The translations under genes and the position numbers were made by a program. A model generated the notes under the pieces. It was not told the DNA's origin. It searched no databases and worked only from the letters and a program-made list of their open reading frames with translations. Positions 17,772 through 17,848 of a stretch of DNA of 32,514 nucleotides are shown piece by piece. Origin of the DNA: an uncultured Rickettsiales bacterium (GTDB lineage: Bacteria > Pseudomonadota > Alphaproteobacteria > Rickettsiales > SXRF01). The stretch is from contig CAZGVV010000016.1 in assembly GCA_964529155.1 (NCBI GenBank), forward strand, positions 1 to 32,514, read 5' to 3'. Position 1 is the stretch's first letter. Every line of letters starts with the position of its first letter.

Positions 17772-17848
17772 GATGATCAGATGATCCGATGATCGGATGA
17801 TCCGTGTTGTGTTAATGATGATCGGATTATCGGATCATCTCATTATCG
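17772..17848. repeat. 8-bp tandem repeat element (4 units, 13-nt spacer, 4 units) filling the ilvH-ilvC spacer
   Basis: The units are gatgatca gatgatcc gatgatcg gatgatcc (17772-17803), then the spacer gtgttgtgttaat, then gatgatcg gattatcg gatcatct cattatcg (17817-17848). By hand alignment the two halves are 21/25 complementary. Confidence 0.8.

Follow-up and report, generated by a model that had tools for sequence, protein, structure and literature searches.

Analysis of the spacer between ilvH and ilvC revealed a 77-nt hairpin (17772-17848) that is made of eight 8-nt repeats, which form two inverted arms around a 13-nt loop, and that contains no ORF. This element is probably a gene-less member of a class of small palindromic inserts, the stems of which are inverted tandem arrays of 7-8-nt units and the full form of which encloses a TIGR02436/PF05635 gene coding for a four-helix-bundle protein. 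It has two pairable inverted arrays of 6-9-nt tandem repeats (4 + 4 octamers), it is placed just past a stop codon and before a ribosome-binding site between co-directional genes, and its arm unit is common to a gene-bearing cassette of the same genome (contig C83, 18/21). The window is the whole 32.5-kb contig on which the element lies (C16, 32,514 nt), and the genome is metagenome-assembled (1.93 Mb in 110 contigs, 95% complete, 50.6% G+C). Among named organisms, its nearest relatives are uncultured Alphaproteobacteria. The features of the ilv region and the gene-bearing relative in the same window are listed in Table 1.

Table 1. Positions in the window of the parts of the ilvH-ilvC element, the adjoining ilv genes and the gene-bearing cassette
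Feature	Position	Strand	Basis
ilvI	18389-20149	minus	
ilvH, acetolactate synthase small subunit; stop TAA 17853-17855	17853-18392	minus	NCBIfam NF008864, E 9e-67
Residual spacer, 4 nt, ilvH stop to element	17849-17852	minus	Read from sequence
5'-side arm in ilv mRNA sense, four degenerate octamers (plus strand GATGATCG GATTATCG GATCATCT CATTATCG)	17817-17848	minus	TRF, inverted-repeat arm
13-nt loop (plus strand GTGTTGTGTTAAT)	17804-17816	minus	
3'-side arm in ilv mRNA sense, four perfect-core octamers (plus strand GATGATCA/CC/CG/CC)	17772-17803	minus	TRF, inverted-repeat arm, 18/21 to C83 arms
Residual spacer with ilvC ribosome-binding site GAAGGGA (17762-17768)	17756-17771	minus	Like the CGAAAGGA-type site of empty-gap relatives
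ilvC, ketol-acid reductoisomerase, ATG 17755	16736-17755	minus	NCBIfam NF004017, E 1e-173
Gene-bearing relative: four-helix-bundle gene between inverted GATGGTTN octamer arrays, nrdR-ribD gap	5442-5897	minus	

Two arrays of period 8 were delimited by TRF, one at 17772-17802 (3.9 copies, consensus GATGATCA) and the other at 17817-17848 (4.0 copies, consensus GATTATCG). On the plus strand the units follow one another as GATGATCA GATGATCC GATGATCG GATGATCC, the loop GTGTTGTGTTAAT, and then GATGATCG GATTATCG GATCATCT CATTATCG; the first four are perfect GATGATCN units and the last four are degenerate. The original prediction, which was made from the letters of the window, had counted eight octamers in two sets of four with a 13-nt gap between them and six GATC sites in the element, and both TRF and the listing of the units bore this out. 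It had also aligned the two halves by hand as an imperfect palindrome (21/25), which agrees with the inverted arms reported by the repeat finder (17772-17802 and 17817-17847, 31 nt, 84% complementary, 14 nt apart). The plus-strand base counts are G9/C6 for the left arm and G7/C6 for the right arm, and the unit is nearly self-complementary. A TAA lies in the loop 1 nt from the arm, and the loop has a faint likeness, judged by eye only (about 7/9), to the 3' inner boundary of the C83 cassette. Because residues 1-336 of IlvC align to profile positions 2-336, the start of ilvC was placed at the ATG at 17755, and the spacer therefore spans 17756-17852 (97 nt). The element does lie inside a 97-nt spacer, one of the two lengths given in the original prediction, while the claim that it fills the whole spacer was too strong: it takes up 77 nt, and native bases remain on both sides (4 nt past the ilvH stop and 16 nt ahead of the ilvC ATG).

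The same gap was compared among relatives. Five family genomes, as well as a metagenome contig, have an empty gap, with 12-15 nt and a GAAAGGA-type ribosome-binding site between the two genes. Since 4 + 16 nt of native gap remain around the hairpin, against 12-15 nt in the empty relatives, the comparison of sequences showed that the element was inserted between the stop of ilvH and the ribosome-binding site of ilvC, where the gap had originally measured 12-15 nt. The element itself was absent from this gap in every relative examined. Two relatives have other forms of the class in it: G017, whose IlvC is 88% identical, carries a complete 464-nt four-helix-bundle cassette with GGTTATAN arms, and G018 carries the last ~26 codons of a four-helix-bundle gene together with the 3' arm, the best match of the fragment being the G017 ilv protein (E 2.7e-7). 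A scan of genome and metagenome contigs for closer ilv DNA returned nothing above 88-90% identity for IlvC or 76% for IlvH, and no genome of the same genus. The IlvC tree was rejected as a species tree, since it divides the taxonomic family into two deep groups with other families interspersed and thus gives no polarity to gain versus loss.

The ilvH-ilvC junction is a general hot spot for insertions. In many relatives, unrelated small ORFs are wedged directly after the ilvH stop (L082, L085, L088, L089, L170, L183, L188 and L194), or ilvC is located elsewhere. In G046 (L173), a lone TGGTCTT array stands after ilvH and is followed by unrelated genes, and TGGTCTT is the arm unit of another cassette of that genome (L123). 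In G009 (L171), the contig ends just past ilvH. The ilv operon of these two genomes may have been split through recombination of dispersed arms. A second small gene-less hairpin was detected in the window at 15456-15502 (minus strand), directly after the stop of the original ilvC tail (which ends in KLVDKAKN), so such elements are found at both ends of ilvC. It is composed of three TTGCGAG heptamers, a 12-nt loop and CTCGCAACC, and its unit family is common to the C8 sucC-sucD cassette and to hairpins on C34 and C48.

Five TIGR02436/PF05635 four-helix-bundle genes were identified in this genome, each within an operon gap and all five bracketed by inverted 7-8-nt tandem arrays. The gaps and arm units are pdhA-pdhB (AGGTTTC), nrdR-ribD (GATGGTTN), atpG-atpD on contig C83 (GATGATCN), carA-carB (AGGATTC) and sucC-sucD on contig C8, where the gene is decayed (GAGTCGC). 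The arms of the C83 cassette are the closest to those of the ilvH-ilvC element among 54 cassettes (18/21), and the atpG cassette of G011 has the same unit as the element. The original prediction had noticed a near-copy of one unit where the array next to the four-helix-bundle gene begins, and had therefore read the element as the same repeat family without an ORF. The near-copy was confirmed (AATGATCG, 5443-5450), and the reading itself gained support from the arrays around 5/5 genes, from the GATGATCN unit shared with C83 and from about a dozen gene-less hairpins. Its tie to the particular cassette at 5442-5897 needs to be adjusted: the proteins of that cassette and of the C83 cassette fall in the same clade, and it is the C83 cassette that is the nearest gene-bearing relative.

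Four-helix-bundle genes are present in 22 of 31 sampled genomes of the family (own genome counted), with 0-7 genes per genome, and inverted arrays are visible around almost all of the 29 loci retrieved. For 34 cassettes, taken from the contigs of this genome and from loci L111-L140 of the same taxonomic family, TRF detected arrays on both sides in 23, and in the rest they are visible by eye. The G-rich array precedes the C-rich one in 22/23 cassettes, which holds on either strand. Cognate arms pair more stably than non-cognate arms (-64 vs -42.5 kcal/mol). In the protein tree the sequences group by host gap (pdh, serS-surE, purE-purK and thiolase), and within each gap the arm units change slowly, so the cassettes are long-lived residents. 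Orthologous cassettes keep their units, GATNATC in the atpG gap of this genome (G000) and G011, and AGGTTNN in the pdh gap.

A separate, long-branched clade with support of 100/100 unites the protein of a 23S rRNA intervening sequence in G012, the G022 sucC-sucD protein, the nrdR-ribD and atpG proteins of this genome and the G011 atpG protein, and all five of its members have GATG-type arms. The G012 locus (L132, G012:C15) is a 23S rRNA gene (Rfam LSU, 1449 bits). In this way, comparison of arms and proteins showed that the GATGATCN arm type belongs, by sequence relationship, to the lineage of the atpG-atpD and nrdR-ribD cassettes of this genome and of a true rRNA intervening sequence of a relative. 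Twenty more members of the GATG-arm clade were all located in gaps between protein genes, and none in rRNA. In the G012 gene the intervening sequence is a true, ORF-bearing one with GATGTTA/GATGTCA heptamer arms, and its protein is sister to those of the mRNA-gap cassettes of this genome. No 23S rRNA gene is assembled in this genome.

In addition to the ilvH-ilvC element, about 12 further gene-less hairpins were found in this genome (C24, C31, C34, C38, C47, C48 (two), C40, C9, C79 and C44) by a TRF-based search for inverted array pairs and by inspection of other arrays. Most of them lie between co-directional genes and, where the upstream stop could be placed, begin no more than about 6 nt past it. 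All of them fold far better than shuffled sequences, at z from -2 to -15. Four gene-less hairpins, namely those on C9, C79 and C44 and the ilvH-ilvC element, are built on the GATNATCN unit found in the atpG-atpD cassette. Three tandem GATGATCN units (two mismatches or fewer) were found in 10/44 genomes of the family, which represent 6/19 genera, with 53 matches in one genome; a control search with the reversed pattern gave 0 matches. The copies inspected are mostly gene-less hairpins in intergenic gaps, and one of them, upstream of a small conserved gene, occupies an identical site in this genome and in another genus. A GATG-arm-clade protein is encoded in 6/10 of the genomes with GATGATCN arrays and in ~15/34 of the others, so there is no clear dependence. 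The original prediction had allowed that the motif family might be confined to these loci and patternless; instead it occurs at at least five loci here and in 10/44 family genomes, and its genome-wide pattern is one of gaps between co-directional genes, just past a stop codon. An own-genome preference in the origin of the gene-less arms was rejected: when these arms were compared with the cassettes, the own genome was strictly best in 3/12 and tied in 4/12, and the unit families are common across the taxonomic family.

The flgF-flgG gap offers a comparison within one genus. Among nine genomes of that genus (L271-L279), the gap is empty in three (32-37 nt separating flgF from flgG), a fourth contains a 456-nt gene-bearing cassette with GTAGTTC arms and another a remnant of that arm. 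Two sister genomes, 95% identical in the flanks, contain gene-less GATNATC hairpins, of 6 units in one and 5 in the other. The pattern resembles that of the ilvH-ilvC gap, and it shows that gene-less GATNATC hairpins are gained within a genus and change in unit number. Gene-less copies of the arm type are shown, as far as sequence comparison goes, to be scattered over many gaps in several genomes and to be gained or lost within a genus.

Two of the gene-less loci have a more complex structure. Downstream of the H+-pyrophosphatase gene hppA in this genome (G000 C79:6818-7048), 3-4 tandem modules of GATNATCN arrays are punctuated by a small hairpin, GTGAAGCTTTATTCAC; the block lies between convergent genes and has a predicted fold of -123 kcal/mol. 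At C44:290-590 a 76-nt module is repeated three times, with GATNATC arrays and a duplicated ribosome-binding site, ATG and first codons of the downstream gene, and these modules adjoin a run of N close to the contig end.

Presence of a cassette in the same gap of a relative raises another possibility, that the element is a scar formed in situ, namely the two arms of an ancestral gene-bearing ilvH-ilvC cassette from which an internal deletion removed the four-helix-bundle gene. In favor of this, the same gap holds the full cassette in G017 and the C-terminal gene fragment with 3' arm in G018, and decayed cassettes are known in this genome, e.g., that in sucC-sucD on C8. Additionally, the TAA of the loop is 1 nt from the arm, as in the cassettes, the loop resembles the 3' inner boundary of C83, and AGATGATC can be reached from the arm unit of G018 (AGGTGATC/AGGTCATC) with only about one change in each unit. 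However, a long branch with 100/100 support separates the G017 protein from the GATG-arm clade. The arms of the element fit those of G017 at 13/21 and those of G018 at 15/21, compared with 18/21 for the own C83, and orthologous cassettes at other gaps (atpG GATNATC and pdh AGGTTNN) keep their unit over similar divergence. A scar in situ is therefore possible, though on balance unlikely. Independent arrival of an element of the GATG lineage is favored over the scar of a G017-type cassette, because of the arm matches (18/21 for C83 vs 13/21 for G017) and because the G017 protein is outside the GATG-arm clade, although the element may instead be the scar of a lost cassette of the GATG type.

The spacer RNA in mRNA sense was predicted to fold into an imperfect stem (-31.4 kcal/mol, with a perfect run of 12 bp). 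The element alone gave -27.2 kcal/mol in mRNA sense vs -38.9 kcal/mol in antisense, the antisense strand being more stable since it alone allows G-U pairing in the degenerate units. Stability and G-U counts were also compared between strands, a crude measure given that the predicted duplexes extended into flanking sequence; the sense strand was the stabler in 19/34 cassettes (p = 0.87) and 6/12 gene-less hairpins. As no strand asymmetry is seen across the 34 cassettes and 12 hairpins, nothing indicates that selection acts on pairing in the sense RNA. No promoter or terminator was found on the coding strand of the ilvH-ilvC spacer; in particular, the element is not a GC-rich stem followed by a U tract, as an intrinsic terminator would be, and the spacer gave zero Rfam matches. 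Because the spacer is without promoter or terminator, the element would be co-transcribed within the ilvIHC mRNA. Its RNA would then fold into an imperfect stem of ~30 bp, which RNase III may cut, by analogy with rRNA intervening sequences; the RNase III gene rnc is present in this genome. Such a cut would separate the ilvIH and ilvC messages, or do little. Among the roles offered in the original prediction (a protein-binding array, an RNA processing stem, or an insertion target or scar), the processing stem is the best supported by this analogy. The element is most likely selfish or neutral and not a regulator of ilv.

A role as a protein-binding array seems very unlikely; on this reading, a regulator or nucleoid protein (IHF/HU) would control ilvC or the ilv operon by binding to the octamers as operator-like sites. 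The units are regularly spaced and symmetric, and paired sets of four octamers in Geobacter metallireducens have been annotated as putative global-regulator sites (PMC2700814), although that proposal is itself a putative annotation. Against such control, the unit occurs at unrelated gaps with no common pathway (atpG-atpD, after hppA, upstream of a small conserved gene, and flgF-flgG), and no relative examined has the element between ilvH and ilvC. Still less probable is a local simple-sequence repeat generated by replication slippage, or an assembly artefact, unrelated to the cassettes. Unit number does differ between close relatives (6 vs 5), and in this 110-contig metagenome-assembled genome repeats of the family are found near contig ends (C44 and C79). 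Four in-phase GAT[GTC]ATC units are, however, expected by chance about 8e-9 times in a 1.93-Mb genome (of the order of 1e-8), with runs of this kind limited in the whole genome to C16, C44 and C79; the arms are inverted copies of one unit, which is common to gene-bearing and gene-less elements elsewhere, and the element is located centrally in a 32-kb contig, flanked on either side by coherent genes. That the GATC sites are a methylation or hemimethylation cluster acting as a Dam/SeqA-type signal is scarcely credible: there are six sites in 77 nt vs one per 368 nt genome-wide, but no Dam homologue was found in the 95%-complete genome, most elements of the class have units without GATC, and the site count follows mechanically from the unit. 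The emphasis that the original prediction had placed on GATC is thus justified for the count of six sites and not for their meaning, since they are probably a by-product of the unit given that no Dam homologue was found. GATC is under-represented across the genome (5242 observed vs ~7505 expected), even though no Dam homologue was found.

Regarding how these elements move, no convincing target-site duplication was seen by eye at the ilvH-ilvC element or at seven other gene-less copies, and no transposase is associated with these elements, the sole cargo ever seen being the four-helix-bundle gene. To our knowledge, the four-helix-bundle gene has no transposase activity. An identity as MITEs was rejected, there being no target-site duplication and no transposase-encoding partner element. 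A telomerase-like or reverse-transcriptase origin of the G-rich arrays was also rejected, as no reverse transcriptase was found in this genome.

A wider joint reading may be put forward tentatively, and as a whole it is rather doubtful. A mobile family of the intervening-sequence type would repeatedly target the few bases between stop codon and ribosome-binding site as well as exposed rRNA helices, and the gene-less hairpins would be its non-autonomous copies; the four-helix-bundle protein would move or maintain the arms; the arrays of Geobacter, Xanthomonas and cyanobacteria would be the same; and the ilvH-ilvC gap would have been hit independently by at least two lineages. On its own the element is ordinary, one more gene-less repeat-armed hairpin with no sign of regulating branched-chain amino-acid synthesis. 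It bears on a question that is open in print, the nature of the four-helix-bundle 'intervening-sequence proteins' and the mobility of repeat-armed cassettes. To this question are offered gaps that are empty, cassette-filled or gene-less depending on the genome (ilvH-ilvC across genera and flgF-flgG within one genus), a protein clade in which mRNA-gap cassettes and a true 23S rRNA intervening sequence come together, and a gene-less arm family that extends over many gaps in several genomes. If RNase III cuts such stems in mRNAs, they would be a widespread and overlooked source of processing sites in operon mRNAs.

Several known systems can be compared with the element. REP/BIME sequences of enterobacteria are imperfect palindromes between operon genes that can stabilise upstream mRNA; a REP is a single palindrome of ~35 nt and is linked to RAYT transposases. 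The ilvH-ilvC element is likewise an imperfect palindrome between operon genes, whereas REPs have no tandem 7-8-nt substructure. Correia (nemis) elements of Neisseria are miniature inverted repeats that are transcribed into mRNAs and cut by RNase III, with fixed terminal inverted repeats and a TA target duplication. Short gene-less palindromes, dispersed in intergenic regions, presumably co-transcribed and with a plausible RNase III stem, are the common ground; in contrast, the arms here are tandem arrays with a copy-specific unit, and no target duplication was seen.

The original prediction could assign the repeats to no known element. This goes too far, as the literature describes paired arrays with no gene in Geobacter and Xanthomonas, and intervening sequences with heptamer arms in Coxiella. 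In Xanthomonas there are 70-75 convergent pairs of GGGAATC heptamer arrays, which are intergenic and conserved in position between species, and GGGGA(C/T)T arrays are described in Nostoc (Rehm et al., 2015, PMC4692102). The Xanthomonas pairs share with our elements the tandem, convergent and intergenic arrangement, and their G-rich array comes first, as it does in 22/23 cassettes here. Unlike those of the ilvH-ilvC element, the Xanthomonas and Nostoc arrays are heptameric, rich in G-tracts and discussed as G-quadruplex formers. Also comparable are the 'class 1' multicopy sites of Geobacter metallireducens, which consist of four tandem octanucleotides (GTTGCTYN), mostly in opposite-strand pairs (Aklujkar et al., 2009, PMC2700814), and which were read as IHF/HU-binding, a putative role (PMC2700814). 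They resemble the element in having four octamers per arm, opposite-strand pairs, multiple copies and no gene between, and differ in unit sequence and phylum; that paper draws no link to four-helix-bundle genes. The arrangement printed for Geobacter and Xanthomonas (~four tandem 7-8-nt units per strand, convergent, intergenic and multicopy) is also that of the ilvH-ilvC element, and in the literature we found no paper that ties the paired arrays of either genus to four-helix-bundle cassettes.

The 23S rRNA intervening sequences are the best-known members of the class, and the TIGR02436/PF05635 gene family was discovered in them. In the intervening sequence of Coxiella burnetii, the stem of terminal inverted repeats contains tandem GACAGAT heptamers in a copy number that varies between strains (Warrier et al., 2016, PMC4990558), and RNase III cleavage has been demonstrated within the heptamer-containing 28-bp stem (PMC4990558). 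The ilvH-ilvC element is situated in an mRNA gap between two protein genes rather than an rRNA helix, its units are octamers and it lacks an ORF, and cutting by RNase III, which was shown for the rRNA forms, is proposed for it by analogy. With the rRNA intervening sequences of Coxiella burnetii, Leptospira, Salmonella and Alphaproteobacteria, it has in common the repeat-armed stem and, through the gene-bearing members of its class, the gene family found in the loop; ORF-less forms also exist among the rRNA intervening sequences.
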